Shown: piece by piece, positions 6,076-56,315 of the stretch
Numbering within the stretch: position 1 is the first letter of the stretch
Layout of the letters: each line of letters starts with the position of its first letter
Origin: Cytophagales bacterium
Lineage (GTDB): Bacteria > Bacteroidota > Bacteroidia > Cytophagales > Thermoflexibacteraceae
Length of the DNA stretch: 64,000 nt
Direction: 5' to 3'
Assembly (NCBI GenBank): GCA_013298985.1
Contig: JAAFJS010000003.1
Location: 6,334-70,333 of the forward strand
Made by a program: the position numbers and the translations under genes
The notes under the pieces: generated by a model
The model's database searches: none
Told to the model about the DNA's origin: nothing
Seen by the model: only the letters and a program-made list of their open reading frames with translations

Positions 6076-6185
6076 TCTGACAATTTTTGTGGCAGACTGA
6101 GTTTCTACGAGTTCCCCCCGCTAAAGCGAGGGGTTAGATTAACCCCTCGCTTTAGCGGGGGGAACTTTCCACAAAAATTGTCAGA
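6076..6185. mobile_element. nested inverted-repeat element (MITE-like ends around a REPIN-like doublet)
   Basis: Perfect 17-bp outer IR (6076-6092 / 6169-6185). Perfect 27-bp inner IR (6110-6136 / 6140-6166). Each inner arm is itself an imperfect hairpin, CCCCTCGC-TTTA-GCGGGGGG. Confidence 0.75.
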
Positions 6186-6255: not shown

Positions 6256-6358
6256 TAGACTTCTTGCAAAAGTGTTTTTTATCGCCTCTCCCGTGCGACG
6301 GTCGCCTTAGTCCCTCTCCTGCTGAGAGGGAAAAATTGCTACTTTCGCAAGAAGTCTA
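6256..6358. mobile_element. MITE-like element with 18-bp TIRs
   Basis: TAGACTTCTTGCAAAAGT (6256-6273) / ACTTTCGCAAGAAGTCTA (6341-6358), 1 mismatch. It starts and ends in TA and encloses a GC-rich hairpin. Confidence 0.75.
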
Positions 6359-7266: not shown

Positions 7267-7674
7267 TTGGAAAAGATAGTTTTAGATACCAATGTACTTT
7301 TGGTTTCAATCTCAACTAAATCCAAATTACATTGGATTTTTAAAGGTCTTTTGGAAGGTGAATACATTTTATGTGTTACGACTGAGATTTTAGCTGAATA
7401 TGCTGAGATAATAGAGCAGCACATGGGGACTTTGCCAAGTGAAAATGCTTTAGGTGTGATAGAAAACTTATCTAATGTAGAACTTGTAACGACTCATTAC
7501 AAATTCGGACTACTGAAAGATGAAGATGACAATAAATTCGTAGATTGTGCCATTGCCTGTAATGCAGATTTTATTATCACCCATGATAAAGATTTTAAAC
7601 CTTTGAAAGATATAGGCTTCCCTAAAGTATCAATCATTGATACAGAGCAGTTTAAGCAGATAATAAATCAATAA
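7267..7674 (+). CDS. PIN-domain toxin (VapC-like, PIN_3)
   Basis: IVLDTNVLL, EILAEY, DEDDNKFVDCA, ITHDKDF acidic motifs; TTG start. Confidence 0.85.
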   Translation: MEKIVLDTNVLLVSISTKSKLHWIFKGLLEGEYILCVTTEILAEYAEIIEQHMGTLPSENALGVIENLSNVELVTTHYKFGLLKDEDDNKFVDCAIACNADFIITHDKDFKPLKDIGFPKVSIIDTEQFKQIINQ

Positions 7675-34433: not shown

Positions 34434-35498
34434 TTATTTAGTGTTATGACGCAGTTCTTTATCTGGGTCTACTTTGCCATATTTTTCTAAATTAAAATAA
34501 ATAGACCCTTTATGATTTTTACCTTTTTTATCAGAATGTACCTCAAATTCTCCTTTTTCAGTATCTACTGAAATATAAAGAATAGTACCTTGATAATCAT
34601 TTTTAGGTTCATAAACATCTCTTTGTCCACTACCACCTTTTTTGAAGTTTATGCTACTTCTCCCTTCATCTTTTTTCCAACCATTTATTTCTCCAATTAC
34701 TTTTGCTACTTTTTCTGCAAATGCAGGGTTATCTTTAAAACCAGTATTGCCTTTTTTATTGCCCTTCTGAGTTTCATCTTTTTTACCAATAGTAGATGCT
34801 TCGTTTTGTACTTGAGTTGAATATTCCGTAATTTTATTTGTGGTTTTTATCAACCGAAAAAGTGTTTGGGTTTTCTTGGAAACATCAAAATCAATTTTCC
34901 AAGTTGAAGACAAACCTCTATCCTCTTCAATGTATGTCCTTATAATTTCCTCAATTTTATTTTTGTGTTGTTGGGTTAGCAAAGGTAAGATATACTCTAT
35001 ACAATAGGTATAAATTTCAACCTCTTTTGCTTGATTCGTGTTAAAACAAGGTAGATTTTGATACTCATAACCATCTATATTAGTTAAAAAAACAGGAATA
35101 AAAGTTCTCAAACTATACTCTTTATCCAACACATTGATAATAAGTATGTATCTGTTTTGTATTTGCTGTTGAAAAGCATAATCAAGGATAGAATAAGATA
35201 CATCTTGATTTTCAATAAGTTTTGATTTGATATAGTAAAGTTTATCACTTTTAGGACTCCAGCTAATCGGATTAAACGCATCTGCTATCTTTTTTAGGAA
35301 AGTAATGTTACCCAATGCTTCCTCCAATTCTTCAAAAGTAGATTTATTAGATTGTTCAAATTCATTAATATTGTTAATATTTGCAGAAATATCATATTTT
35401 TTAGATAAATCTCTAATTCCACTAAGTGATTGGGCAAACTTCTCATCTAACAAATTCAGGCTTGTTTGTAGAGATAAATCGTTAAATAGTATTTCCAT
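34434..35498 (-). CDS. putative Menshen NsnC-like effector
   Basis: Third gene after DUF262 and the DUF3696 ATPase, overlapping the ATPase end. N-term ILFNDLSL; C-term NGW...YISVDTEKGEFEVH...H.G. Confidence 0.55.
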   Translation of the reverse strand: MEILFNDLSLQTSLNLLDEKFAQSLSGIRDLSKKYDISANINNINEFEQSNKSTFEELEEALGNITFLKKIADAFNPISWSPKSDKLYYIKSKLIENQDVSYSILDYAFQQQIQNRYILIINVLDKEYSLRTFIPVFLTNIDGYEYQNLPCFNTNQAKEVEIYTYCIEYILPLLTQQHKNKIEEIIRTYIEEDRGLSSTWKIDFDVSKKTQTLFRLIKTTNKITEYSTQVQNEASTIGKKDETQKGNKKGNTGFKDNPAFAEKVAKVIGEINGWKKDEGRSSINFKKGGSGQRDVYEPKNDYQGTILYISVDTEKGEFEVHSDKKGKNHKGSIYFNLEKYGKVDPDKELRHNTK

Positions 35499-36630
35499 TG
35501 GCTAAAATAATTGATAAATCAGTGTCTATTTGGTCAAAAAAACCTGTAATGTCCTTTTTGCGAAGTTCTTTAACTTTAAGTCTGGCACCTTCGGTAATAG
35601 GAATATCAAAAACCTGCGAGGTAGCATCGTTATTCTTTGTAAAATAAAATATTTTTACGTTCTCTGCTACATTTTCTTTTTTATTTTTAATAATTCCCAC
35701 CCTTACCCCATTCACAATATGGTCTGAGTGTGTTTCACAAAAAATCTGTACACCATTTTGGGCAGCGAGGCACATCAGTTCAGCAAGTTTAGATTGTCCT
35801 TTTGGGTGCAGGTGCGATTCTGGGTTTTCAATGATGAGCAAATCTCCTGCTTGGGCAGAAAGCAGGGCTATAATGATAGGAAGGGCGTAGGAAATGCCAA
35901 AACCTGTATTTTCAGGCTTAATTTCATCTGTATAACCATCATTCATTTCATATTTATATAACAATGTAACTGAACGTTCTTTATCATTTACGTTTGCATC
36001 TACCTGAATAGAAGGGCTTATTTCACCCACCCAAGCATTTACTTGCTCAATCAAATTTTTAGATTTGGTTTTAGGGTGTTGCAGAGTATCAAGGCTTATA
36101 GAAGCAAAATCTTTGATTTTTTGCCCTAAAAAATGAACTGCATATTCACATCTGCCTTTTATTTTAGAAATCTGATTTTTTTTAATAGTATCTTGGTCAT
36201 AATCTTGTTTTTTCTTGGGATGTATACGCTCTGCACTTATATACTGAAAACGAGTATTAAAAAGACTGATTTTTTCAAGATTTATAGTATTTTCTACACT
36301 CGACAATGACTCCGAAGAGCTAATCTTTTGCCTATCTATTTTAAAGTTGTATTTGTATTGGTCTTGTCCTATCCCAAAACTGAAACCAATGAAGTCAGCA
36401 TTTACTTTTTGTGTAAAAGCATTTTCTTGTGTACCTATTTCACACAAATCACCTTCTAATTCCAACGTCTCTATTTTACCTTTTTTAGCAGATTGTCTTA
36501 AAAGCAAAAGGGCTTGTATTAATGTAGATTTCCCCATGCCATTCAAACCTGTTAAAAGATTTAGATTACGAAAACTAAACTGATTATCACGTAAAATTTT
36601 AAAATTTTGTATATGTAAATGCGTAATCAT
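35482..36630 (-). CDS. AAA ATPase with C-terminal DUF3696 (Menshen NsnB-like)
   Basis: GLNGMGKST, YISAER, GFGISYALP, IIENPESHLHPKGQ, ETHSDH, GFFDQ. Confidence 0.85.
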   Translation of the reverse strand: MITHLHIQNFKILRDNQFSFRNLNLLTGLNGMGKSTLIQALLLLRQSAKKGKIETLELEGDLCEIGTQENAFTQKVNADFIGFSFGIGQDQYKYNFKIDRQKISSSESLSSVENTINLEKISLFNTRFQYISAERIHPKKKQDYDQDTIKKNQISKIKGRCEYAVHFLGQKIKDFASISLDTLQHPKTKSKNLIEQVNAWVGEISPSIQVDANVNDKERSVTLLYKYEMNDGYTDEIKPENTGFGISYALPIIIALLSAQAGDLLIIENPESHLHPKGQSKLAELMCLAAQNGVQIFCETHSDHIVNGVRVGIIKNKKENVAENVKIFYFTKNNDATSQVFDIPITEGARLKVKELRKKDITGFFDQIDTDLSIILANGNTI

Positions 36631-37565
36631 AATGCTTGGATTATATTTTCAATAAATTCAATATTTCTTAAATAATCAGAACGCAGATTTTGAAAATGTA
36701 GTTTTTTAATAAAAATATCGCTGTTCTGCATAATTTTAGCTAATTTTTTTTCATCAGTCAAAGCTACCAATAAGCAAAGAAACCAATGCATATTGGCTTT
36801 TTTATTTTGCTCTAATAATGATAAATTTTTAAGTGCTTCTTTAATCTTTTCTTTTAATGAGCGTAATAATTCTTGGTCTCTTACGTCAATTTGTAATAAC
36901 ACTTTGTTTTTAAAATATTGGAAATTTGTATTTTTATCAAATTTTTTTCCTTCCAAATAAAATGCTACAAAAAGACTTATTAATTCTATCAGGTTAATAT
37001 TTTTGGGTAAAAATTGAATTTCATACCTAATATATTCTTTAATTTGATTCAAAAAAATCAATAATTCAGGCTCTAAATCTTGGGCTTGGAGCAAGGATTT
37101 ATTAGTTACCCTGTTTATAATTACATATTTTTCCAATTTGGGCGTAGTAGGACTAAAATATCTTATAGAAACGACACGCCAAAAAATTCTATTTTTTTCG
37201 TATTCAGGTAATTCCTCAAAACTGAATTTGTTGTAGTTAAAAAATTCTAAACCAGTTAATCTAAGTCCATTCATCATAAATTCCTGAATAGCATATAAAA
37301 ATTCGTATCCAAAATCATCAACAGGACGAAATTTGGTTTCATTTGTAACATCTAAGTACAAAATAGGCAAAGGAATATTAAGCAAAATAGTTTCTATCAT
37401 CTTGCTTTTTTTGTGCGGATTAACCAAATGGCTATTTTTTCCAAAATTATTAAAAACAAATTTACCTTCTTCAATATTTCGCACCACTTCATTTAGTGCT
37501 ACTTCATGAGAAAGAATATTAATATTTTTAGAAAATAATTTTTGATGCTTGTCATTGCTTTCCAT
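36627..37565 (-). CDS. DUF262/ParB-like protein (Menshen NsnA-like) with degenerate motifs
   Basis: KSKMIETILLNIPLP.LY and L.LTGLEFF...FEELP match DUF262, and it has an ATGA overlap with the ATPase. Start taken at MESND (37565); GTG 37610 is an alternative. Confidence 0.7.
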   Translation of the reverse strand: MESNDKHQKLFSKNINILSHEVALNEVVRNIEEGKFVFNNFGKNSHLVNPHKKSKMIETILLNIPLPILYLDVTNETKFRPVDDFGYEFLYAIQEFMMNGLRLTGLEFFNYNKFSFEELPEYEKNRIFWRVVSIRYFSPTTPKLEKYVIINRVTNKSLLQAQDLEPELLIFLNQIKEYIRYEIQFLPKNINLIELISLFVAFYLEGKKFDKNTNFQYFKNKVLLQIDVRDQELLRSLKEKIKEALKNLSLLEQNKKANMHWFLCLLVALTDEKKLAKIMQNSDIFIKKLHFQNLRSDYLRNIEFIENIIQAL

Positions 37566-37628
37566 AGCTACAAAACTAATAATACTCCCCAAAACTAAAA
37601 AAACTTTCACAAAGTTAGCAATAATTCC

Positions 37629-40600
37629 CTACATATTCCTTCTATACTGCCCACCAACTTCATATAATGCCTGACTCATTTGCCCCAAAGAACAGACTTT
37701 TGCCGCTTCCATCAGACTTTCAAAGAGGTTTCCGTTATTTATTGCGGTGCTTTGTAAGTTTTTTAGCGCAATTTTTGCCTCTTTTTCGTGGAAAGCATGG
37801 AAACTGTTTAAGTCCTTGATAGTGAGTTCTTTTTCTTCGGTGGTACTTCTGATAACCTCTTTGGGCAGTACCGTAGGCGAGCCTTGCGGGTCAAGAAAAG
37901 TATTAACACCGATAATGGGTAGCTTGCCTTCGTGTTTGAGGGTTTCGTAGTACATACTTTCTTCTTGGATTTTGCTGCGTTGGTACATTCTTTCCATTGC
38001 GCCGAGTACGCCGCCGCGTTCGGAAATATTCCTAAACTCCTGCAAAACAGCTTGTTCTACTAATTCTGTTAATTCATCTATAATGAAAGCACCTTGTAAC
38101 GGATTCTCATTTTTTGACAAGCCCAATTCATGGTTAATTATCAACTGAATTGCCAAGGCTCGTCTTACACTTTCTTCGGTAGGGGTGGTGATAGCCTCAT
38201 CATAAGCGTTGGTATGCAGAGAGTTACAGTTGTCATAAATCGCATAAAGTGCTTGCAAAGTGGTTCTTATATCATTGAAAGCGATTTCTTGTGCGTGCAA
38301 ACTGCGCCCCGAAGTTTGGATATGATATTTGAGTTTTTGGCTGCGGTCGTTGCCTTTGTACTTGTATTTGATGGCTTTTGCCCAGATTCGGCGAGCTACT
38401 CTGCCCATGACAGAATATTCGGGGTCCATGCCATTGGAAAAAAAGAAAGACAAATTGGGTGCAAAATCGTCAATATTCATGCCTCTGCTTAGGTAATACT
38501 CGACAAAAGTAAAGCCATTGGAAAGGGTAAAAGCTAACTGTGAAATAGGATTTGCGCCCGCCTCTGCAATGTGGTAACCTGAAATAGAAACAGAATAAAA
38601 ATTCTTAACTTGTTGATTGACAAAATATTGCTGAATATCGCCCATCATTCGCAAGGCAAATTCGGTACTGAAAATGCAGGTGTTTTGCGCTTGGTCTTCT
38701 TTGAGAATATCTGCCTGAACCGTTCCACGAACTACTTGCAAGGTTTCTGCTTTTATTTTTTCATAAATCTCTTTATCAAGCACTTGCTCGCCTGTAACGC
38801 CCAAAAGTAGCAAACCTAAGCCGTCGTTACCTTCGGGGAGAGAGGCGTTGTATTGAGGTTGCCCCACCCGTAGCGACGGTCGCCCTAACCCCTCCCCAAC
38901 GGAGAGGGGAATATACTCCCTCCCAGAAGGGGAGGGCTGGAGTGGGGCGGAATAAATTGCTTGAATTTTCTTTTCTACTTCCTCCAACAATCCATTTTTC
39001 TTAATGTAAATTTCGCACTGCTGGTCTATGGCGGCATTCATAAAAAAAGCCAAAATCATAGGGGCGGGACCATTGATAGTCATTGAAACTGAGGTACTTG
39101 GGCTACACAGATTAAAACCAGAGTACAGTTTTTTTGCTTCGTCAATCGTAAAAATACTTACGCCAGAGTTGCCCACTTTTCCATAAATATCAGGGCGGTG
39201 GTCAGGATTTTCGCCATAAAGTGTAACAGAGTCAAAAGCAGTGGAAAGTCGCTTGGCAGGTAAGCCACTTGATACAAAGTGGAATCGCTTGTTGGTGCGC
39301 TCGGCATTTCCCTCGCCTGCAAACATACGCGCAGGGTCTTCGCCTTCGCGTTTGAGTGGGAAAACGCCCGCCGCATAAGGGAAGCTACCTGGCACATTTT
39401 CAGTGAGTAACCACTTTAATCTATCGCCCCAATCTTGGTATTTGGGCAGGGCTACTTTGGGGATTTTGAGGTGCGAAAGCGTTTCTGTATAAAGCTCTTG
39501 CGCTAAAATTTTATCACGAACTTTGAACTGATATTTTTCTGCGGTGTAAGTTTTTACTAAATCTTCCCAAGAAAAAAGCAGTTTTTTACATTCGTAGTCA
39601 AGTTGTTGTTCTAATTCATTGTATAATTGTTGGATTTGTTGGATTTGTTGGTTGTTGGTTGTTAGTTGTTGGATTGTTCCATTGAGTTGATACATTTTAC
39701 GCGCGATATTGCATTGATTTTCAACGAATTTGTCGTAATTATCGCTATTTTCTGCAATTTCTGCCAAGTAGCGCACGCGGTCAGGGGGAATGACAGCTAA
39801 TTGTTGGATTGTTGGATTGTTGGATTGTTCTTTTGGGCTATTAGTAGTCTTTTTTCCGTTGTCCGATTCCTCACTGACAACCCTTAAATTTACGTCTGTT
39901 TTTTTATCAATTTCCTCAATAATTTTTTCAAATAAAATATTCATTCCCAAGTCGTTGAACTGGCTGGCAATCGTACCGTAAACAGGCAAATCTTCATCTT
40001 TGCCTTCCCAATAGTTGCGGTTGCGACGGTACTGCTTTCTTACATCGCGGAGTGCGTCCAGCGAGCCTCTTTTGTCAAATTTATTGATGGCGATGAGGTC
40101 TGCAAAGTCGAGCATATCAATCTTTTCGAGTTGTGTAGCCGCGCCGTACTCGCTGGTCATCACGTAAAGAGAAACGTCGGCGTGTTCGGTAATTTCGGTA
40201 TCGGACTGTCCAATTCCCGAAGTTTCGATAATTATCAAGTCAAAACTTGCTGCTTTACAGATGTTTATGGCATCTCTGACATATTTGCTCAATGCCAGAT
40301 TGGACTGACGAGTCGCCAGCGAGCGCATATACACGCGAGGATGGTTGATGCTATTCATGCGGATACGGTCGCCAAGTAATGCGCCGCCCGTTTTGCGCTT
40401 AGAAGGGTCGACAGAAATAATTGCAATGGTCTGATTATCAGTATTTAGCAAAAATCTACGCACCAGTTCATCTACCAAAGAGGACTTGCCTGCGCCGCCT
40501 GTGCCTGTGATGCCAAGGACGGGGGTTCTTATTTGTTTGAAATTGTTTGAAGTTGTTTGAAGTTGCTCATTGTTAATTGATAGCTGTCCTTTGATTTTTT

Positions 40601-40691
40601 CGAATTGGTCAGGGTAGTTTTCTGCTAAGGTGATAAGCTGGGCAATGAGCTGATGATGATGAGCATTGAGTATTTTATTGGGCGTTGTCAT
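37629..40691 (-). CDS. icmF: IcmF-like MeaB GTPase + acyl-CoA mutase fusion lacking the N-terminal B12-binding domain
   Basis: [74 protein letters not shown]. No DxHxxG motif is present. Confidence 0.85.
38873..38947. repeat. palindromic REP-like element inserted in frame in the mutase
   Basis: Two GC hairpins (CCCCTCCCC-AAC-GGAGAGGGG; CCCTCCC-AGAAG-GGGAGGG). It encodes part of [28 protein letters not shown]. Confidence 0.75.
39626..39678. repeat. in-frame short tandem repeat (TTGTTGG-based 7-9-mers)
   Basis: ATTGTTGG ATTTGTTGG ATTTGTTGG TTGTTGG TTGTTAG TTGTTGG ATTGTT; encodes [18 protein letters not shown]. Confidence 0.8.
39800..39829. repeat. in-frame short tandem repeat (ATTGTTGG x3.75)
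   Basis: Direct read of the sequence; encodes [10 protein letters not shown]. Confidence 0.8.
40533..40562. repeat. in-frame short tandem repeat (TTGTTTGAAG x3)
   Basis: TTGTTTGAAA TTGTTTGAAG TTGTTTGAAG; encodes [10 protein letters not shown]. Confidence 0.8.
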
Positions 40692-40804
40692 GGTGTTTTT
40701 TTTGAGTGATGAGTTAGTAGTGATACATTATAAAGTTTTGATATTCATACATTTATAAACTAATATAACTCAAACTTGGTTAAGGCTAAGTGTATTTTTA
40801 TATG

Positions 40805-40812
40805 CAAAAATA
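40805..40812 (-). promoter_or_regulatory. candidate -7 promoter box for the mutase gene
   Basis: TATTTTTG on the minus strand, about 115 bp upstream of the ATG. Confidence 0.4.
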
Positions 40813-40942
40813 GGAAATTTATCTTAGAATTTCTCATAGATTCACTCACTAAAAATTTGAGCGTTTCTACTCATATTTTTTGAGCAAATCATGTTATAGG
40901 TTAGCAATAGAAAACCTGCTAATTTTGTAATATCAAATTAAG

Positions 40943-41120
40943 TAGGACTTACGCAGAGGTTCTTTTAGACACTTTAACTGCTTATAGTGAGGCTAAAAAC
41001 AGCAAAAAAATATCGTGCCTGCTAAATTAGGCAAAATTCGTTTTGCTCGTTTTCAAAATTTACATTTTAAGGCGTTTTAAGCGTATATTTCATTAGTTTC
41101 AAATTTTTGCGTAAGTCCTA
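40943..41120. mobile_element. 178-bp MITE, copy 1
   Basis: 13-bp perfect TIR TAGGACTTACGCA / TGCGTAAGTCCTA; near-identical second copy at 41440. Confidence 0.88.
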
Positions 41121-41185
41121 TTAAGATAATAAATATCTGATTTGATAAAGATATTATTAAGGGGGTAAATTTGAATAAAAATCTG

Positions 41186-41223
41186 AAACAGTCCTTTTGC
41201 TTTGCGGAGGGACTGTTTTTTTT
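41186..41223 (+). terminator. orphan intrinsic terminator between MITE copies
   Basis: AAACAGTCCTT / AGGGACTGTTT stem followed by T8. Confidence 0.6.
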
Positions 41224-41345
41224 GTTTAAGACAACCTTATTAATTGCTTTTTCGTAAGTTGAAAAATGGTGTTTTAAAAAAATATAGTTATTTAGTTTTA
41301 AACAAAACATACTTAAATGATTGTAAACCAATTTTTTAAATTATT

Positions 41346-41439
41346 TAGGACTTACGCATCGTTTTTATATTTCAAAAAACGTTTAACTTTGGGGCTAAAA
41401 CAGGGTTATTATGAACTATCAAGCATTTCGCAATATTTA
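41346..41439 (+). mobile_element. solitary left end of a related element with different internal sequence
   Basis: Third TAGGACTTACGCA at 41346, followed by a TAACTTTG box and an ATG, ending where MITE copy 2 begins. Confidence 0.55.
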
Positions 41440-41617
41440 TAGGACTTACGCAGAGGTTCTTTTAGGCACTTTAACTGCTTATAGTGAGGCTAAAAACAGC
41501 AAAAAAATATCGTGCCTGCTAAATTAGGCAAAACTCGTTTTACCAGTTTTCAAAATTTGAATTTTAAGGCATTTTAAGCGCATATTTCGTTAGTTTCAAA
41601 TTTTTGCGTAAGTCCTA
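41440..41617. mobile_element. 178-bp MITE, copy 2
   Basis: Same TIRs and length as copy 1; about 10 substitutions by manual alignment. Confidence 0.88.
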
Positions 41618-42012
41618 ATTTATATTCCTTACAATAGATTTATCTATAATTATTTTTTCCACTCTACTATGATTTATATGTTCTTTATCAAACAAAGTTT
41701 TATATGTAGTGTATAAATGAACATTAAATATAATTTTTTGAATCATTTATTGATAACAATGTCATTTCTTTAATTACTAATTTTTTACCACAACATTTAT
41801 TGATAATTGAAAACTGTTTATTGATAAGTTGCTAAGGTAAGGAAGGGGAAGGGAAAAAGGAAATAGCAAAAGCATTTATTTCTTATTTGACTGCCAAGTG
41901 ATATTTCTTATTAAGAACCTGTCAAATTTGATGAATAAAGTTTCATTCAAAACTTGAGGTGAAAAAATCAAAAAATTAACCTCATTTTAATCTTTCCTTT
42001 TCAAAAACGTTT

Positions 42013-42020
42013 TATCTTTG
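42013..42020 (+). promoter_or_regulatory. Bacteroidota -7 promoter box upstream of carB
   Basis: TATCTTTG(C), canonical TAnnTTTG. Confidence 0.55.
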
Positions 42021-42244
42021 CGAGATTTTTAAAATAGTTAAGTAAAAAGTAAACGTGAAAATACCAATATTTAACCCAATTCATAAAAACGCATACAAAA
42101 TGGCTTTACCGAACTTCTAAGGAAGTTTAGTAAAGCTAATTTTTTGAAATTTATTGTTGATTGTTAAATAACAGATGATTTTTAATGCAATTAACAACTA
42201 ACAATTTAACCATATAACTATTCAACAATTTCAATTTAATCAAA

Positions 42245-49733: not shown

Positions 49734-52700
49734 CTATCTCATAATATTCATTCCCCCTGTAAACGTCTTGCGCTGTCCGCCAATCGTTACGCTAACTTGG
49801 TAATAATAAGCACCATCAGGCAGTTTTTCGCCGTCTTTGCTTCTGCCGTCCCAAGTGTTGTTGTAGCCTATGGTGCTGAAAACTTCGAGTCCCCATCGGT
49901 CATAGACCTTCACCTCTGCGGCAGGATATTTCTCAATATTGACGATTTCCCAAGTGTCATTGATGCCATTATTGTCAGGAGTGAGCAGGTTGGTAACGAC
50001 CAAATCGCCGTTGTCAGTTACAGTAATGGTAATTTCGTCAGTGCTTTCGCAGCCTGTTTGGTCTTTGCCTGTTACGGTGTAAGTCGTTGTCTGTAAAGGA
50101 TTTGCCACTGGGTCGGCAATGCTTGGGTCGCTCAGTCCTGTGGTTGGAGTCCATTTATAAGTAACTGTTCCTGTGGCTAATAGCCTGATTGCCTTTCCTT
50201 TTGGGGTAGTTATATCTGCGCCTGCATTTACGGTAGAGCCTGCGGGATTGTTTGCCCTTACATTTACGGTTTGGCTACTTTCGCAACCCGACTCGTTTCT
50301 TACAAAAACGATATAACTCCCCACAGCCAAGTTATTAAAACTGGTAACTGCCTGAAAACCACCTGTATTACCTAATCTGAATTGCAAATTTCCTGTTCCT
50401 GCAAGGCGAATCATACCGCTTTTGTCATTTGCACAAACATTGTCAGTTACAGTAGCAGTGAATACTGGGCGGGGATTTATACGTACAAATACACTGTCCC
50501 TGACAGCACAAGCATTTGTGCCTGTGAGGGTTAGCACATAAAATCCGCTTGCAGTAGGCGTTAAGTTAGCAAGCTGAGGATTTCTAATTCCCGAAGTAAA
50601 GTTATTTGCACCTCGCCACGCGTAGCTTGCGCCAGCCACCTCATTGGCAGATAGTTGTACGTTTTCACCTTCGCATACATCTATGGTTCTTGCCGTTCCA
50701 AAAGTCAAAGTAGGTCTGGGTTTGGAAATAACAGAAATAATTTCAGAAGTATTAGAACCACAGCCTTGTCTGCTGATTTCTAAGCGATAAAAACCTGCAT
50801 TAGTAGTTATGTAAGTATCTGAGTTTGAGTTTCCTGCTGCTGTTTCAAAAATACCTGTGGCAGTAGTAGCAAATGTCCAGCGATATATATAGCCTGTTCC
50901 TTTGGTGGTGGTTTGTAAAATGGCGTTATCACCTTGGCAAAACTCTATATTTGTTCCCTGTAAAATATTGGGCTTAGAAACCGTAGTAACTCCCACTACC
51001 TGAATAGGTTGTGAGCTTGCTCTACAACCATTTACGCTAATTTCTACTATATAAGTTCCTGCTTGATTTGCCAAATAAGTTGCTTGATTGCTTACGCCTG
51101 CGGCATTGGCAAAAGTTCCTCCTGCGGTAGCAGAAAACCGCCATTGATAGGTATAAAGTGGATTGGTTTGCGCTTCTAAGAGTACGTCCCCTCCATTTAT
51201 ACAAAACTCTGCTCGCGTGCCTTGCAAGATAGTAGCCACAGGCAAAACCGTAGTTTCTATGACTTCTATCACTGCGGAAGTAGCTGTTCCACAACCTATT
51301 GCAGAAATGGTCAATCTATAAAATCCAGCTTGATTTGCGCTGAGTGCAAAGGCAGTTCCATTAGCAACATTGGTGAAAGTACCTGTTGCCGAGCTTGAGT
51401 TTTGCCACTGATAAGTTACGTTAGTGCCTCTGTATAAACTCCTTAGCGTTACATTTCCACCACGACAGAAGAATACTCGACCGCTTGGCAAAATATTAGG
51501 TGCAGGCAAGGTGCTTACACTTCTGACTTCGGTAGCTTCGGAAGTTTTTACGCAAGCACCCAAAGTGGCACTTACTTTATAGAATCCAGCCCTGGTTGCG
51601 GCATAAAGTGTATCTGCATTTCTGCTACTTGCAGGTTTAAATTCGCCTGTATTAGTTTCAGAAAACAACCATGAATAAATTACGTTGGGTTCAGGAATTA
51701 CCTCTAAGAAAACATCACTTCCTGCACTCGCACACAAGGAAGCAAGCGGTGCTTGGCGAATTTTTGGGTCAGGAGTGAAAAGCGTTTCTTTGACCTCTAT
51801 TGCCTCAGAAGTAGCTGTTCCACAACCTGTTAGTGTAGTTCTTAATCTATAAAAACCTGAAATACTTGCAGTATAATTGGGCGAAGCACTACCACCCGAA
51901 GCATTGGCAAAAGTGCCTGTGGCTGTGGCGGAATATAGCCATTGATATTGGTAATTTGTGCCTTTGGATTTGGCATTTAAGGTTGTGTTTTCGCCTTTAC
52001 AAAACTGAATCACACCACTTTGCACAATGGTCGCGGGTGGCATCGTAGGCGTTCCGCTTACCTGAACAGGGGCAGAAGTTTCCACACAAGCATTTAAACT
52101 TATTTCTACGGTATAAAATCCTGCAACATTGGTCGTATATGAAAATTGATTGCTTGTGCCACTTGCATTGGCGTAAGTGCCTGTCTGTGTGGCAGAAAAC
52201 TTCCATTGGTATCTGTAACCTGCGCCTTGTACTGCTTCTAAAATCACATCTCCGCCACTGGTACAAAATTGGGCGGTAGGTGCTTGGATTATTTCTGCTT
52301 TGGGTTTTTCAGTCGTAACTCTTACTTCGGTAGGGTCAGATTCTGCCGTTCCGCAGTCCGAAGTGGTGCGTAATCTGTAAAATCCTGCCTGAGAGGTCGT
52401 GTAATTATCTGCATTGCTTGCACCGCTTGCATTGGCATAAGTGCCTGTTGCAGTGGCAGAAAACAACCATTGATAGGTATATTTTGTACTTTTGGTCAAG
52501 GCAGTTAGGTTTACGTTTCCCCCTGCACAAAAAGTAATCAGCCCGCCTTGCCCTATTTGGGGCTTAGGCATGGTCGTCGTAGAAGTTACATTAATATTAG
52601 AAGAAGTAGCCGAACAGCCATCAAAGCTAACAACTATTCTGTAAAAACCTGCTACACTGGCTATATAGCTTGCTTTTTTGTTATCCCCCAAAGCATCTGC

Positions 52701-55700
52701 ATAAGTGCCTGTGGCGGTGGTAGCAAATTGCCAATTATAGGTATAGCCTGTTCCTGTTTCTGCCTCTAAAATAATGTCGCCATTGGCGCAGAATTGGGCA
52801 GTTGCTCCTTGTAAAATTCTTGCAGTAGGGAGTACCGTAGAAACTTTGACTTGTATAGGGTCTGACGTTCCTGTTCCACAGGTGGGGCTACTGGTTACTA
52901 AGCGATAAAAACCTGCTGTATTTACTGTATAGCTGTCTTGACTATTTGTACCACTTGCGGGTGCGTAAGTGCCTGTAGCTGTGGAAGAAACCTCCCAGCG
53001 ATAGGTATATTTTGTGCTTTTGGTCAAGGCATTCAAAATGAGAGAACTTCCCTGACAAAATGCAGCGTTTGCGCCCTGCAAAATGATAGGCTTGGGCATG
53101 GTGGTCGTGGTCGTTACGGCAATGGGTGCAGAGGTTTCCACGCAACCATTTAAGTTGATTTCTATCACATAAAAACCTGCGTCAGTGGCTGTGTAAGTGG
53201 CTGTATTGCTCACTCCTGCGGCATTAGCGTAAGTACCTGTGGCTGTAGCGGAAACTTTCCATTGGTATTTATAATCAGTGCCTTGTAATGCGTCGAGAAT
53301 CACATCACCACCTACACAAAAAACGGCTGATGAACCTTGCAAAATTTGAGCAATAGGCTTTTGCGTGCTTTGCGTAACTTGAATTGGGTCAGAAGTAGCA
53401 CTTCCACAATTCGGAATTGTTACAGTAACTCTATAAAAACCAGCTATGTTTGAAGCGTAAGTAAAACTGTTGCTTGCCCCACTCGCATTGGTGAAAGTTC
53501 CCATTGCAGTAGGAGAAGTTTGCCATTGATAAGTATAACCTGTTCCTTTCAAAGGTGTTGATATATTGGCACTTCCGCCTTGGCAGAAATTGGTCGTTGC
53601 GCCTTGGTCTATAGTAGGCTTGGGAGTCATGGCGGTCTGTTGTACTTGCACTGCGGCGGAGGTTTCGGTACAGCCGCCCAAGGTAACTTGTACCCTGTAA
53701 AAACCTACTTGATTGGCGTTATAGCTTGCTAAGGTGTTCATACCTGCTGCATTTGAGAATGTTCCCATGGCAGTAGTTCCGTATTGCCACTGGTACTGAA
53801 ATCCTGCGCCTGTTTGTGCGTCTAAGGTTACATCGCCACCTGCACAAAAGAAAGCGGGCGATGTTTGCAAAATTTTTGCGACTGGTTTATTAAAAGTTTC
53901 TTTGACCTCTATGGGGTCGGAAACATTCGTTCCACAACCTGGGCGACTAACCTGTACTCTTAAAAAACCTACACTACTGGTGGTGTAACTTTGTTGGTTG
54001 TTCGTACCGCTTGCAGGGACAAATAGCCCTGTTGCTGTTGCCGAAGACTGCCACTGATAAGTTACGCCTGTCATACCGAGCAGTGAAAAAGTGGTTACAC
54101 TACCTCCTGTGCAGAAAAATGCTGTTCCGCCTTGCTGAATAATGGGTTTGGGCATGGTGGTAACTTGGGTAACATTAATAGGGGCAGAAGTAACTTCACA
54201 GCCTCCATTAGAAACTTTTAAGGTATAAAAACCAGCAATATTTGCAGTATAGTTTACTTGGTTATTTGTTCCGCTTGCGGGTGCGTACACGCCTGCAACC
54301 GTAGAGGAGTATAGCCAAGCATAAGTAGCCCCTACCTGTGGTAAAGCATTGAGAATCACATCTCCACTTATACAAAACTGTGCGGCACTTCCTTGTAAAA
54401 TCAATGCTGTTGGCTGAACGGGTGATTCTATTACTGCAATGGGGTCAGAGGTATTGGCACAAGCCCCATCAGTGATGGTTACTTTATAAAACCCTGCAAT
54501 TCCTGCGCTATACGTGGAAGTATTAGTTGCTCCGCTTGCGGGTGCGTAAGTGCCTGCCAATGTAGCAGAGAAAGTCCATGCGTAGGTCAAGCCCATGCCT
54601 GTCTGATTGGCAATGAGTAGCGCACTGCCCCCACGACAGAAGGAAGTGCTTGCGCCCTGCGCGATGGTCGCCGTTTTTTCTGTAACATTCACAGGGTCAG
54701 AGCTATGCGTACAGCCATCTTTGGTAACATTTAATCTGTAAAAACCTGCTACATTGGTGTTGTAAGCAACAGCACTACCTGAGCCTATGGCATTGACAAA
54801 AGTGCCTGTAGAAGTGGCTGAAAACTGCCATTGATAAGTTGCATTAACAACTGTCAATCCATTTAAAGTAACATTTGCGCCTTTACAAAAACTTGCGGTA
54901 AGTCCTTCTTGAATTACGGCTTTGGTTTCTGTTACTTGAATGGGCAAAGAAGTTGCTGCCAGAGGACAGCCTATTTTTTTGACTTCGACCACATAAAAAC
55001 CTGCGGTATTAGCAGGGTAGTTTGCTGAGTTTGCCGCCATGCCTGATAGATTGGTAAACATTCCTCCTGCGGTTGCTGAATATTTCCATTGATAGGTATT
55101 CCCTGTGGCGGCTTGTGCATTTAAAGTTACTGAACTCCCAAAACAATAAGAGGTTGGACTCATATTGGTAATGGTGGCAGTAGGTGCGGCTTCTTGCGTT
55201 ACTTGGACAGGTGCAGAACGGCGCGTACAGCCTGCTCTGCTGATATCAACCACATAGAACCCTGCGGTGCTTGCGGTGTAGGTCATGCCTGTACTTGCAC
55301 CAGCCGCAGGGGTGAAAGGTCCCGCAGAGGTAAGCCCTACAAACCACTGAAATTGTGTTCCTATGTCAGTTTGGGCAGTAAGTGTGGCATTTCCACCTGC
55401 ACAAAAACTTATAGGTGAGCTTTCTGCAATACTTGAAGTGGGGCTTGGGCTTTGGTTAAGCTGGATAAGCGCAGAAGTATTCGTACAACCGTTTTTGGTA
55501 ACTTGTAATTTATAAAAACCTGGTGTAGTAACAGTGGTAGAAGCCATAGTTGCACCTGCCACATTATTATAAGTAGTATTATTTGCTGAGAAAGTCCATT
55601 GATAGGCATTTCCTACACTTAGCTCGTCTGTTTTGGCTTGCATCAGAAAAGGTTGCCCTAAGCAAATAGTACCAGTGCCTCCTTGCAAAATCACCGCGTC

Positions 55701-56315
55701 GGGAGTAAAATTTGGAACAATCTCAATCACAGGGGAAAAAGCGGTACACATATTTGCGCCTGTTACTGCTATTCGGAAAAAGCCTGTGGTAGGTGAGCTT
55801 ACGGTATAGTTTGCAGAGGTACTCCCTGCGCCAGTTTCGTTTTGAAAAGAACCGCCACCCAGCGGCGAAAAGCGTTGCCACTGATAGGTTGCGCCTGCCA
55901 CAGGCGTAGCATTCAAAGTGATAGAATTGGTAAGGCAGTAACCAATGATTGCGCCTTGCGTGATTTGGGCTACAGGTAGCGGCTGAACCGTTACTGTTCC
56001 TCTCACTCTGGCACTTTCTGTCATGCCATCTGCGGAAAGTGAACTCACAAAAAAACTGGTGGTAGTGGATAGGGAAGGAGTAGTAAATCCTGCCATAGTT
56101 GCACCTACAATAGGTGTACCGCCTGTTTCGGTGGTGTACCAGCGATAAGAACCTCCCGAAGGTGCGCCACTTGCAGTCAAGGTTGCAGTTCCTGCTCCGC
56201 AACGACTAACATCACTGACCATTACTTGGGCAACTGCCTGAAAAGCAATGAAAAACGAAAATAAGAGTAGCGTAACAATCCGCATAGTAGTATTGGAGAA
56301 GTTATTTTTTTTCAT
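49734..56315 (-). CDS. large Ig-like repeat surface protein with T9SS type-B (gliding-motility-associated) C-terminal domain
   Basis: Signal peptide, about 21 repeats of about 85-90 aa (FC.GG.V.L...YQW..S...G.Y...V...GC), an SprB-like unit, and CTD LTPDNNGINDTW...YDRWG...WDG...DGAYYY. Confidence 0.9.
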   Translation of the reverse strand: MKKNNFSNTTMRIVTLLLFSFFIAFQAVAQVMVSDVSRCGAGTATLTASGAPSGGSYRWYTTETGGTPIVGATMAGFTTPSLSTTTSFFVSSLSADGMTESARVRGTVTVQPLPVAQITQGAIIGYCLTNSITLNATPVAGATYQWQRFSPLGGGSFQNETGAGSTSANYTVSSPTTGFFRIAVTGANMCTAFSPVIEIVPNFTPDAVILQGGTGTICLGQPFLMQAKTDELSVGNAYQWTFSANNTTYNNVAGATMASTTVTTPGFYKLQVTKNGCTNTSALIQLNQSPSPTSSIAESSPISFCAGGNATLTAQTDIGTQFQWFVGLTSAGPFTPAAGASTGMTYTASTAGFYVVDISRAGCTRRSAPVQVTQEAAPTATITNMSPTSYCFGSSVTLNAQAATGNTYQWKYSATAGGMFTNLSGMAANSANYPANTAGFYVVEVKKIGCPLAATSLPIQVTETKAVIQEGLTASFCKGANVTLNGLTVVNATYQWQFSATSTGTFVNAIGSGSAVAYNTNVAGFYRLNVTKDGCTHSSDPVNVTEKTATIAQGASTSFCRGGSALLIANQTGMGLTYAWTFSATLAGTYAPASGATNTSTYSAGIAGFYKVTITDGACANTSDPIAVIESPVQPTALILQGSAAQFCISGDVILNALPQVGATYAWLYSSTVAGVYAPASGTNNQVNYTANIAGFYTLKVSNGGCEVTSAPINVTQVTTMPKPIIQQGGTAFFCTGGSVTTFSLLGMTGVTYQWQSSATATGLFVPASGTNNQQSYTTSSVGFLRVQVSRPGCGTNVSDPIEVKETFNKPVAKILQTSPAFFCAGGDVTLDAQTGAGFQYQWQYGTTAMGTFSNAAGMNTLASYNANQVGFYRVQVTLGGCTETSAAVQVQQTAMTPKPTIDQGATTNFCQGGSANISTPLKGTGYTYQWQTSPTAMGTFTNASGASNSFTYASNIAGFYRVTVTIPNCGSATSDPIQVTQSTQKPIAQILQGSSAVFCVGGDVILDALQGTDYKYQWKVSATATGTYANAAGVSNTATYTATDAGFYVIEINLNGCVETSAPIAVTTTTTMPKPIILQGANAAFCQGSSLILNALTKSTKYTYRWEVSSTATGTYAPASGTNSQDSYTVNTAGFYRLVTSSPTCGTGTSDPIQVKVSTVLPTARILQGATAQFCANGDIILEAETGTGYTYNWQFATTATGTYADALGDNKKASYIASVAGFYRIVVSFDGCSATSSNINVTSTTTMPKPQIGQGGLITFCAGGNVNLTALTKSTKYTYQWLFSATATGTYANASGASNADNYTTSQAGFYRLRTTSDCGTAESDPTEVRVTTEKPKAEIIQAPTAQFCTSGGDVILEAVQGAGYRYQWKFSATQTGTYANASGTSNQFSYTTNVAGFYTVEISLNACVETSAPVQVSGTPTMPPATIVQSGVIQFCKGENTTLNAKSKGTNYQYQWLYSATATGTFANASGGSASPNYTASISGFYRLRTTLTGCGTATSEAIEVKETLFTPDPKIRQAPLASLCASAGSDVFLEVIPEPNVIYSWLFSETNTGEFKPASSRNADTLYAATRAGFYKVSATLGACVKTSEATEVRSVSTLPAPNILPSGRVFFCRGGNVTLRSLYRGTNVTYQWQNSSSATGTFTNVANGTAFALSANQAGFYRLTISAIGCGTATSAVIEVIETTVLPVATILQGTRAEFCINGGDVLLEAQTNPLYTYQWRFSATAGGTFANAAGVSNQATYLANQAGTYIVEISVNGCRASSQPIQVVGVTTVSKPNILQGTNIEFCQGDNAILQTTTKGTGYIYRWTFATTATGIFETAAGNSNSDTYITTNAGFYRLEISRQGCGSNTSEIISVISKPRPTLTFGTARTIDVCEGENVQLSANEVAGASYAWRGANNFTSGIRNPQLANLTPTASGFYVLTLTGTNACAVRDSVFVRINPRPVFTATVTDNVCANDKSGMIRLAGTGNLQFRLGNTGGFQAVTSFNNLAVGSYIVFVRNESGCESSQTVNVRANNPAGSTVNAGADITTPKGKAIRLLATGTVTYKWTPTTGLSDPSIADPVANPLQTTTYTVTGKDQTGCESTDEITITVTDNGDLVVTNLLTPDNNGINDTWEIVNIEKYPAAEVKVYDRWGLEVFSTIGYNNTWDGRSKDGEKLPDGAYYYQVSVTIGGQRKTFTGGMNIMR

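Follow-up and report, generated by a model that had tools for sequence, protein, structure and literature searches.

A palindromic doublet, probably of a dispersed REP-like family, is read in frame within a variable loop of an IcmF-like protein of Cytophagales

Introduction

Proteins lengthened by in-frame palindromic repeats are textbook knowledge for Rickettsia, whose Rickettsia palindromic elements (RPEs) are about 100 to 150 bp long. To our knowledge, such repeats are scarcely documented in free-living bacteria, and we know of none reported for Bacteroidota. The small dispersed repeats (SDRs) of Nostoc and other cyanobacteria, 21 to 27 nt in length, were reportedly described by Elhai and colleagues in 2008 as very small units that sit inside other repeats, including mini-transposons, by a mechanism said to be unknown. 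Here, we analyze a palindromic block inside an icmF-like gene of a Cytophagales bacterium (family Thermoflexibacteraceae). The block lies in a stretch of 64,000 nt (assembly GCA_013298985.1, contig JAAFJS010000003.1, positions 6,334 to 70,333 of the forward strand). We refer to this whole stretch as the window and count all positions from its first nucleotide.

RPEs occur between genes and in frame within functional genes, as cited in a later account (Ogata et al. 2000/2002; Claverie and Ogata 2003; PMC3733652). Repetitive extragenic palindromes (REPs) inside open reading frames (ORFs), and REPs nested in target palindromes such as GTAG-23 of T. roseum, were reported by Di Nocera et al. (PMC3733652). 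The doublet form of the REP, the REPIN, is mobilized by REP-associated tyrosine transposases (RAYTs) (PMC3116915). We found no literature on repeats in Thermoflexibacter. We propose that the block in the icmF-like gene is quite probably a member of a dispersed REP-like palindromic family of Cytophagales, present as a REPIN-like inverted doublet lodged in a tolerant loop of IcmF. It represents a new family in a new phylum, of a kind already known from RPEs, intragenic REPs and REPINs, and cyanobacterial SDRs.

Results

An inverted doublet lies in frame in an intact icmF-like gene

The host gene (37629 to 40691, minus strand) is an intact ORF for an IcmF-like protein of 1,020 amino acids with a MeaB G-protein domain and an acyl-CoA mutase substrate-binding domain (Pfam MeaB, 2.4e-42; MM_CoA_mutase, 5.6e-112). 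The protein aligned to fused isobutyryl-CoA mutase IcmF (Protein Data Bank entry 4xc6) with 1,207 bits, beginning at chain residue 224. It thus shows the fusion of a MeaB-type G domain to a mutase substrate-binding domain by which IcmF is recognized, and it gave no match to the N-terminal B12-binding domain (PF02310) expected in the same chain. The closest proteins, from Thermoflexibacter and other Cytophagales metagenome bins, are 80 to 87% identical. They place the window in Bacteroidota and speak against a cyanobacterial origin, to which the style of its repeats had at first pointed. The ratio dN/dS was 0.016 to 0.025 against three orthologues, at dS values of 0.7 to 0.95 that are near saturation. 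Purifying selection on the host gene is strong. A pseudogene is ruled out by the intact 1,020-residue frame together with these dN/dS values.

The original prediction placed a double hairpin of 75 bp in this coding sequence. The double hairpin is indeed present and in frame, but it extends over 88 bp (38861 to 38948), as delimited by inverted repeats I1, I5, I6, and I7, by folding, and by aligning the block with its reverse complement. Its G+C content is 68%, versus 39.6% for the 64-kb window. A repeat finder bounded the block by an outer 7-bp inverted repeat (GCCCCAC at 38861 to 38867 and GTGGGGC at 38942 to 38948) and located two inner hairpins (38889 to 38909 and 38918 to 38936) that are mutually inverted copies. 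The plus strand from 38861 to 38948 reads GCCCCAC CC GTAGCGACGGTCGCC CTAA CCCCTCCCC AACG GAGAGGGG AATATACT CCCTCCC AGAA GGGGAGGG CTGGA GTGGGGC. The coding strand reads GCCCCAC TCCAG CCCTCCCC TTCT GGGAGGG AGTATAT TCCCCTCTCC GTT GGGGAGGGG TTAGGG [CGACCGTCGCTACGG] GTGGGGC.

Once a nested 15-nt mini-palindrome is set aside, the block is 73 nt long and aligns to its own reverse complement as an inverted doublet of a ∼33-nt unit, GCCCCAC-(CCCAG/CCCTAA)-CCCTCCCC-N4-GGGAGGG-AGTAWA, with a quasi-palindromic spacer common to both units. Unit A (38861 to 38914, plus strand) has the order GCCCCAC-CC-(15-nt unit)-CTAA-CCCCTCCCC-AACG-GAGAGGGG-AATAT and contains the hairpin CCCCTCCCC/GGAGAGGGG at 38889 to 38909 (repeat-finder pair I5). 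Unit B (38915 to 38948, minus strand) has the order GCCCCAC-TCCAG-CCCTCCCC-TTCT-GGGAGGG-AGT. The spacer between the units (AATATACT, 38910 to 38917) resembles the AATAACT spacer in the doublet at a related locus, L142. Unit stems measured 7 to 9 bp with the repeat finder, and the only perfect GC-rich hairpin in the 64 kb with a stem of at least 7 bp sits in this block.

As DNA, the block folded better than its shuffled versions (z = −3.1; 1 of 200 shuffles as good). The mRNA strand reached −55 kcal/mol (z = −4.1; 0 of 200 shuffles as good), in a minimum-energy fold that pairs one unit with the other in one long hairpin. An Rfam scan of the element returned nothing above threshold, only sub-threshold generic hairpin matches to microRNA models. 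The element is open in four of its six reading frames, and read-through is therefore likely in either orientation.

The inserted codons (38862 to 38951, minus strand) specify amino acids 581 to 610. These 30 residues are exactly the P/S/G-rich peptide that had been attributed to in-frame palindromic DNA. An insertion of roughly 25 residues had also been predicted. In an alignment of 40 homologues, we measured the loop between "..KIEAIY" and "[KR]PxY[NQ]..LPEGNDGLG". The common length was 6 to 7 residues (for example, IYKKKGLPRPRYN in P0073, P0039, P0086, P0019, and P0021), and the window protein has 31, so that the insert lengthens the protein by a net ∼24 residues. Orthologues without the repeat have ∼7 residues here rather than an equally long segment.

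The segment had been placed in the barrel region of the mutase, and the structural alignment agrees. In C. metallidurans IcmF, residues 443 to 1093 comprise the linker and the substrate-binding triosephosphate isomerase (TIM) barrel (PMC10481361). The insertion site maps to chain residues 728 to 737 of 4xc6, within the substrate-binding (TIM-barrel) domain. The HMMER alignment is broken there, with query residues 567 to 644 opposite ∼9 chain residues (728 to 737). Modeling of the loop, which the original prediction had suggested, gave a partial answer. An AlphaFold2 model built from 40 close homologues showed residues 585 to 607 as coil with a predicted local distance difference test (pLDDT) score below 50, preceded by an extra helix (569 to 581), in a model that is poor overall (mean pLDDT, 61). 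The P/S/G-rich segment is probably flexible.

The same doublet was present in three independent assemblies, namely, the window, L001 (Joint Genome Institute metagenome), and L003 (Logan assembly). Four biofilm metagenome runs (X1 to X4) contain this genome at a depth of ∼5, and contigs from all four cover the block at 100% identity. An assembly artefact is ruled out by the recurrence of the doublet in these independent assemblies and runs.

IcmF-like proteins of the clade in general (window, L001, L002, L003, and L140 to L145; ∼1,000 to 1,056 amino acids) lack the N-terminal PF02310 domain, which more distant Cytophagales orthologues (1,105 to 1,285 amino acids) do have. Searches with tblastn revealed no B12 domain in the window and none within 10 kb of icmF in the relatives. 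The cobalamin subunit must be either encoded elsewhere or absent.

Modules of the block are dispersed

The original prediction also claimed that the same motif occurs in a noncoding miniature inverted-repeat transposable element (MITE) at 6295 to 6330, and we found this to be so. The MITE is an intergenic element of 103 nt (6256 to 6358), flanked by TA, with 18-nt terminal inverted repeats (TAGACTTCTTGCAAAAGT/ACTTTCGCAAGAAGTCTA) and a core made of one unit plus the mini-palindrome. The pattern GCGACGGTCGCCYTARYCCCTCYCC matched exactly two sites in the window, 6295 and 38873, where none was expected. In local alignment, the homology between the MITE core (∼6284 to 6336) and unit A of the block (38861 to 38914) extends over 53 to 54 nt, with 43 identical positions. 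The MITE is multicopy. Summed depth over its terminal repeats was 80 to 200, versus 4 to 7 for single-copy sequence, which corresponds to roughly 20 to 30 copies. Other copies on metagenome contigs carry a different hairpin core. The block in icmF has neither TAGACTTCTTGCAAAAGT nor ACTTTCGCAAGAAGTCTA and does not qualify as a MITE copy. Instead of a MITE insertion, it represents the MITE core unit in doublet form.

Parts of the block recur beyond the MITE of the window. Two further loci, seen in X1, X2, and X4, match 38859/61 to 38891/93 within MITE-type flanks. Unit B alone (exactly 38915 to 38948) is matched, between unrelated flanks, by two to three other contigs in each metagenome. A solitary intergenic unit lies at L140:14220-14255, and Emticicia sp. 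L071 carries a unit with the mini-palindrome directly 3′ of a stop codon. The repeat is thus found elsewhere, in noncoding DNA included, in the form of the MITE core, the metagenome loci, L140, and L071. Our reading covered the 64 kb of this genome and ∼130 kb from relatives.

Searches at the peptide level, made with three versions aligned and with the four open frames joined, yielded 3 and 27 word-sharing candidates, respectively, none of which was scored, including the protein of the window itself. Since even that protein went unscored, the result reflects a limit of the method for short, compositionally biased queries and not absence of the peptide. Mapping "skips" over the block stem from divergent homologues, and at a depth of ∼5 the Logan contigs are too shallow to reveal population polymorphism. 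The intergenic region of the MITE also contains, 90 nt upstream of this element, a perfect palindrome with a 27-bp stem (6110 to 6166; AGTTCCCCCCGCTAAAGCGAGGGGTTA GAT TAACCCCTCGCTTTAGCGGGGGGAACT).

A 15-nt mini-palindrome is nested in the doublet

Within unit A lies the mini-palindrome GTAG-CGACGGTCGCC (38870 to 38884, plus strand), whose boundaries are ambiguous by 2 nt (38868 to 38882 is equally possible). Its copy number differs among close orthologues. L003 (protein P0003) has the same double hairpin without any 15-nt piece (GGGGTTAGGG^GAGGGGC), the window has one, and L001 (P0002) has the arrangement of the window plus a second, identical 15-nt piece in the second hairpin (TTTGGG[GCGACCGTCGCTACG]GAGGGG on the coding strand). 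This series of zero, one, and two exact copies indicates that the mini-palindrome is a separate insertion. Every copy in icmF is exactly 15 nt and equals five codons, seated in the GGGG^AGGGG arm of the coding strand. With this constant length, the mini-palindrome never breaks the reading frame.

The same piece is found well outside icmF. The 17-mer GGCGACCGTCGCTACGG is identical, and in the same context, in Emticicia L071 and in L128, L129, L135, L138, and L140; this identity spans different Cytophagales families. In the MITE of the window, the copy at 6293 to 6306 (plus strand; GT-GCGACGGTCGCC) is 14 nt long and lacks the A of GTAG. Some MITE copies on metagenome contigs are without 13 to 15 nt at 6295 to 6309, which is exactly the position of the mini-palindrome. 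A scan of genome contigs with the 16- to 17-nt core gave chance matches in high-GC genomes, with L071 (Emticicia) the sole informative one among the matches listed. A metagenome scan with a 22-nt pattern gave five relevant loci, four of which are one Emticicia-like locus, and a scan of viral contigs gave chance matches only.

A second kind of 15-nt insert, CGGCAGCCATTGCTG, was observed at the same GGGG^AGGGG arm in L129 (∼900 to 960) and L138 (∼7270 to 7330), beside a GCGACCGTCGCTACGG unit. The orthologous loci of Emticicia, L071 and L128, do not have it.

The IcmF loop is recurrently occupied by different repeats

The loop that holds the doublet is generally variable across Bacteroidota and lineage specific, and at least five different repeats occupy it among related genomes. 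In L002 (P0004), the loop has two AAAACCCTTAGGGTTTT palindromes of ancestral length instead of the doublet. This loop, at L002:8590-8640, contains two copies of a 17-nt palindrome, AAAACCCT(T/A)AGGGTTTT, read in frame as TLRVLQNPKGF in an equal-length replacement of the ancestral loop. In a neighbor-joining tree of conserved blocks, P0004 groups with the doublet-bearing proteins P0001 to P0003, from which it follows that elements turn over at the loop. The loop of L140 (P0005) is filled by an AT-rich repeat coding for N and Q, and ∼12 nt (a few codons) further downstream L140 has a single unit with the mini-palindrome, encoding SPSEGGGWATVATGEV. In T. ruber (L141), the loop holds an AT-rich palindrome with a 16-bp stem. 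L142 (P0016), which belongs to another genus, shows the same doublet architecture, built on CCCCC/GGGGG stems (GCCCCC-TAA-hairpin-AATAACT-hairpin-CT-GGGGGGC). L142 carries this second doublet twice, once in the loop and once in the MeaB-mutase linker; among its close relatives, L144 and L145 have just the linker copy, and L143 has none. The family has therefore entered IcmF more than once.

The N/Q/T-rich stretches of the host protein (amino acids ∼38 to 52, 275 to 300, and 343 to 356) and of L140 (L140:11770-11900) also differ in length among IcmF orthologues, and their DNA consists of AT-rich CAA(T/C)AA-type repeats. Repeats of this type also fill the hot-spot loop in P0005, P0011, and P0015. 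A microbial-mat relative likewise has one in its loop (loose end TTGTTAATTGTTGATTGTT at 38955).

The doublet is old and is conserved as DNA

At least three species share the doublet, at synonymous divergences (dS, 0.8 to 0.95) that approach saturation. Its insertion is thus old, having already been present in their common ancestor. The family had been called apparently active; this does not hold for the doublet insertion, and it fits better the copy number of the 15-nt unit and the occupancy of the loop, both of which look recently dynamic. The orientation of the doublet center is possibly dynamic as well. In L003, the hairpin stems are kept, and the loops and peptide differ (encoding SPKERKFIPLPEGEGLGEG). 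Of the eight bases in its hairpin loops, seven match those of the window in inverted order, versus none or one in direct order, and the overall alignment scores are close (28 versus 26). This pattern is suggestive of a flip of the doublet center in L003.

We compared the window with L001 after removal of the 15-mers, using 378 coding positions as the flank. The element is 92% identical (69 of 75 positions), and the flanks are 84% identical overall and 64% identical at third positions. The probability of six or fewer differences in the element at the third-position rate is 3e-8. Because the element exceeds the third positions by so much while its peptide is not conserved, it appears to be kept at the DNA level and not as a peptide. 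The simplest explanation of this likeness would be gene conversion among family copies, with selection on the hairpins as the alternative.

A RAYT gene with flanking REPs lies next to icmF in some relatives

In three relatives, we observed a RAYT gene directly downstream of icmF (L143:6140-6799, L002:9967-10632, and L003:3428-3640, the last partial), at a distance of 85 to 200 nt. Against NCBIfam NF047646, the RAYT falls slightly short of the cut-off of 80 (75.8 bits; E = 3e-21), and against Pfam Y1_Tnp it exceeds the cut-off of 23 with 28 bits. Inverted classical GTAG REP doublets (CTGTAGAACGGACTTTAGTCCGTT) lie on either side of the gene. A RAYT with such flanks beside icmF indicates that the clade has REP/RAYT biology.

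Other features of the window

The region 3′ of icmF in the window is occupied by an unannotated gene for 327 amino acids (36627 to 37610) and an AAA_15/AAA_21 ATPase gene (35482 to 36630). The ∼1.5 kb on the 5′ side (40692 to 42244) has no convincing ORF. It contains a direct repeat of 178 nt (40943 to 41120 and 41440 to 41617, 94% identical) and three copies of a motif that includes TAGGACTTACGCA. On the minus strand from 49734 to 56315, a 2,193-codon ORF consists of tandem units that have diverged and recur every 264 or 528 nt; it probably encodes a large repetitive surface protein.

Discussion

We propose the following course of events for the reading that we consider quite probable, that of a dispersed REP-like family. 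A doublet would have settled in the substrate-binding (TIM-barrel) domain of an IcmF-like protein, in a loop that varies and tolerates inserts, where it is predicted to be read through as a P/S/G-rich segment of ∼24 residues net. Tolerance could come from the four open frames of six, from insertions and deletions in multiples of three, and from a loop that is itself lineage specific and variable; on this account, the loop may be neutral for enzyme function. As a second-order event, the 15-nt GTAG-tagged mini-palindrome would have entered the outer arm of a unit (GGGG^AGGGG on the coding strand). The doublet DNA may then have been kept like its family by gene conversion, in concerted evolution, or by selection on the hairpins, and not by selection on the peptide. 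For the arrival of these elements, we envisage either single-strand transposition of the RAYT type or conversion between repeat arms driven by homology, and conversion would also account for the arm-specific spread of the 15-mer.

Several observations weigh against this proposal. The exact doublet was found only in icmF in the metagenomes examined, where only its halves recur. Copy numbers are modest, with two loci in 64 kb, and the 64-kb window together with the ∼130 kb of related flanks contained no coding copy outside IcmF orthologues. The original prediction that the family adds loops to proteins in this lineage is supported for IcmF, in which all coding cases lie. We found no clean pair of filled and empty sites and no visible target-site duplication; the element replaces ∼18 to 21 nt of ancestral loop. 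When L142 is set against L144, the closest comparison, the flanks prove to differ too, a pattern more in keeping with a recombination tract than with simple insertion. The link to RAYTs is also incomplete. The ∼33-nt unit begins with GCCCCAC and has neither a GTAG nor a CGTC tag. A tblastn search revealed no RAYT in the 64-kb window, and the only RAYT found has a different flanking REP (GTAGAACGGACT..), so that no RAYT flanked by the same REP as the block was seen in the window or in the flanks of the relatives. Finally, high conservation of the element could also mean function rather than conversion.

Function is at the center of one rival explanation, in which the segment is a selected addition, either a structured mRNA element (acting, for example, in translational pausing or stability) or an enzyme loop near the CoA-entry face, and in which the other repeats are incidental relatives. 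The excess of identity in the element over flanking third positions (92% versus 64%), the stable mRNA-strand fold (−55 kcal/mol, z = −4.1), and the identical 17-mer GGCGACCGTCGCTACGG in different Cytophagales families would all be expected from it. We nonetheless consider it unlikely. In P0004, the nearest relative, the doublet is missing and a different palindrome of ancestral length takes its place, and at least five unrelated repeats fill the same loop in relatives. In L003, the peptide is strongly changed while the hairpins are kept. Nor does the element match any Rfam family above threshold, and the structure model gives a low-confidence coil. Selection aside, the segment might have arisen in place, by slippage, hairpin-templated repair, or local duplication in a GC-rich low-complexity loop, with no dispersed element inserted at all. 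Such an origin fits the missing target-site duplication and clean empty site, the variability of the loop across Bacteroidota generally, and the second 15-nt copy of L001, which is located 26 nt away from the other copy and flanked by near-identical G-arms, where local conversion could produce it. It fails to explain why the same 33- to 54-nt modules occur with unrelated flanks elsewhere in the genome and metagenome and in other genera, or why L142 has a doublet of this architecture at a second position in the gene, and we give it very little weight.

The RAYT next to icmF raises a different possibility, namely, that it acts preferentially in cis and has repeatedly delivered REP-type DNA, including the GTAG 15-mer, to the icmF loop. 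A RAYT with GTAG REP doublets does stand 85 to 200 nt downstream of icmF in L143, L002, and L003, the 15-nt unit itself starts with GTAG, and the icmF loop was struck far more often than any other gene in the ∼200 kb surveyed. The survey was, however, anchored on icmF, and the impression of a hot spot is partly ascertainment bias. Moreover, the REP that flanks the RAYT (GTAGAACGGACTTTAGTCCGTT) is different and was never seen inside icmF, and the genomes richest in inserts (window, L001, L140, and L142) have no RAYT at that position. Delivery in cis therefore seems to us highly improbable. A bolder idea, which we consider improbable, is that the 15-nt mini-palindrome is a mobile or homing unit of its own, the smallest described, and that the icmF loop is its recurrent landing site by way of an ancestral neighboring RAYT acting in cis. 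If this is true, a mobile mini-palindrome enters one arm of a host repeat and has spread with identical sequence across Cytophagales families.

How does this locus compare with the described systems? The original prediction drew an analogy to RPEs, which is apt as a functional description. Both are dispersed palindromes that lie between genes and in frame in working genes, contribute a peptide to a loop, and have several frames open. In icmF, the frame is kept along with purifying selection, orthologues without the repeat lack the segment, and the repeat is dispersed, as a functional definition of an RPE-like element would have it. The icmF element is shorter (73 to 88 bp), is a doublet with runs of G and C and a nested 15-nt unit, and is documented here in one host gene family versus dozens for RPEs. 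The host is a free-living biofilm or mat Cytophagales bacterium, in contrast to an obligate intracellular alphaproteobacterium. The likeness is one of function, and homology to the RPE sequence families (RPE-1 to RPE-10) would not be expected in a Cytophagales host. With SDRs, the 15-nt unit shares its presence or absence at orthologous positions inside a host repeat (the icmF block and the MITE copies). It differs in being 15 nt instead of 21 to 27 nt, in belonging to Bacteroidota, and in occurring also in a coding region, where it is always frame neutral.

Compared with REPs, bacterial interspersed mosaic elements (BIMEs), and REPINs, the family again consists of short imperfect palindromes, mostly extragenic, with inverted doublets capable of folding as one long hairpin. 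Mosaic nesting in other palindromes and an occasional location in ORFs are further points in common with REPs (PMC3733652). So are the GTAG tag on the 15-nt unit (38870 to 38873) and the presence of a RAYT with GTAG REP doublets in the same clade. Unlike REPs, the ∼33-nt unit is untagged, the tagged piece is 15 nt versus 20 to 40 nt, the copy number is modest, and no RAYT flanked by the ∼33-nt unit was found in the window or in the flanks of the relatives. The copy at 6256 to 6358 is a typical MITE of ∼100 nt, multicopy, with 18-nt terminal inverted repeats and TA flanks (reviewed in PMC10969869), whereas the icmF block lacks the terminal repeats and has only the internal core in common with it.

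The locus offers a compact natural series, with empty, single, and double states of a 15-nt unit, a possibly flipped doublet center, at least five repeats in one loop, and a RAYT neighbor in some genomes. It lends itself to asking whether very short repeats move by transposase or by gene conversion and how enzymes cope with inserts. Loops of this kind inflate the apparent divergence of proteins and may mislead structure prediction and alignment as well as domain calling; in this protein, Pfam splits the mutase domain.

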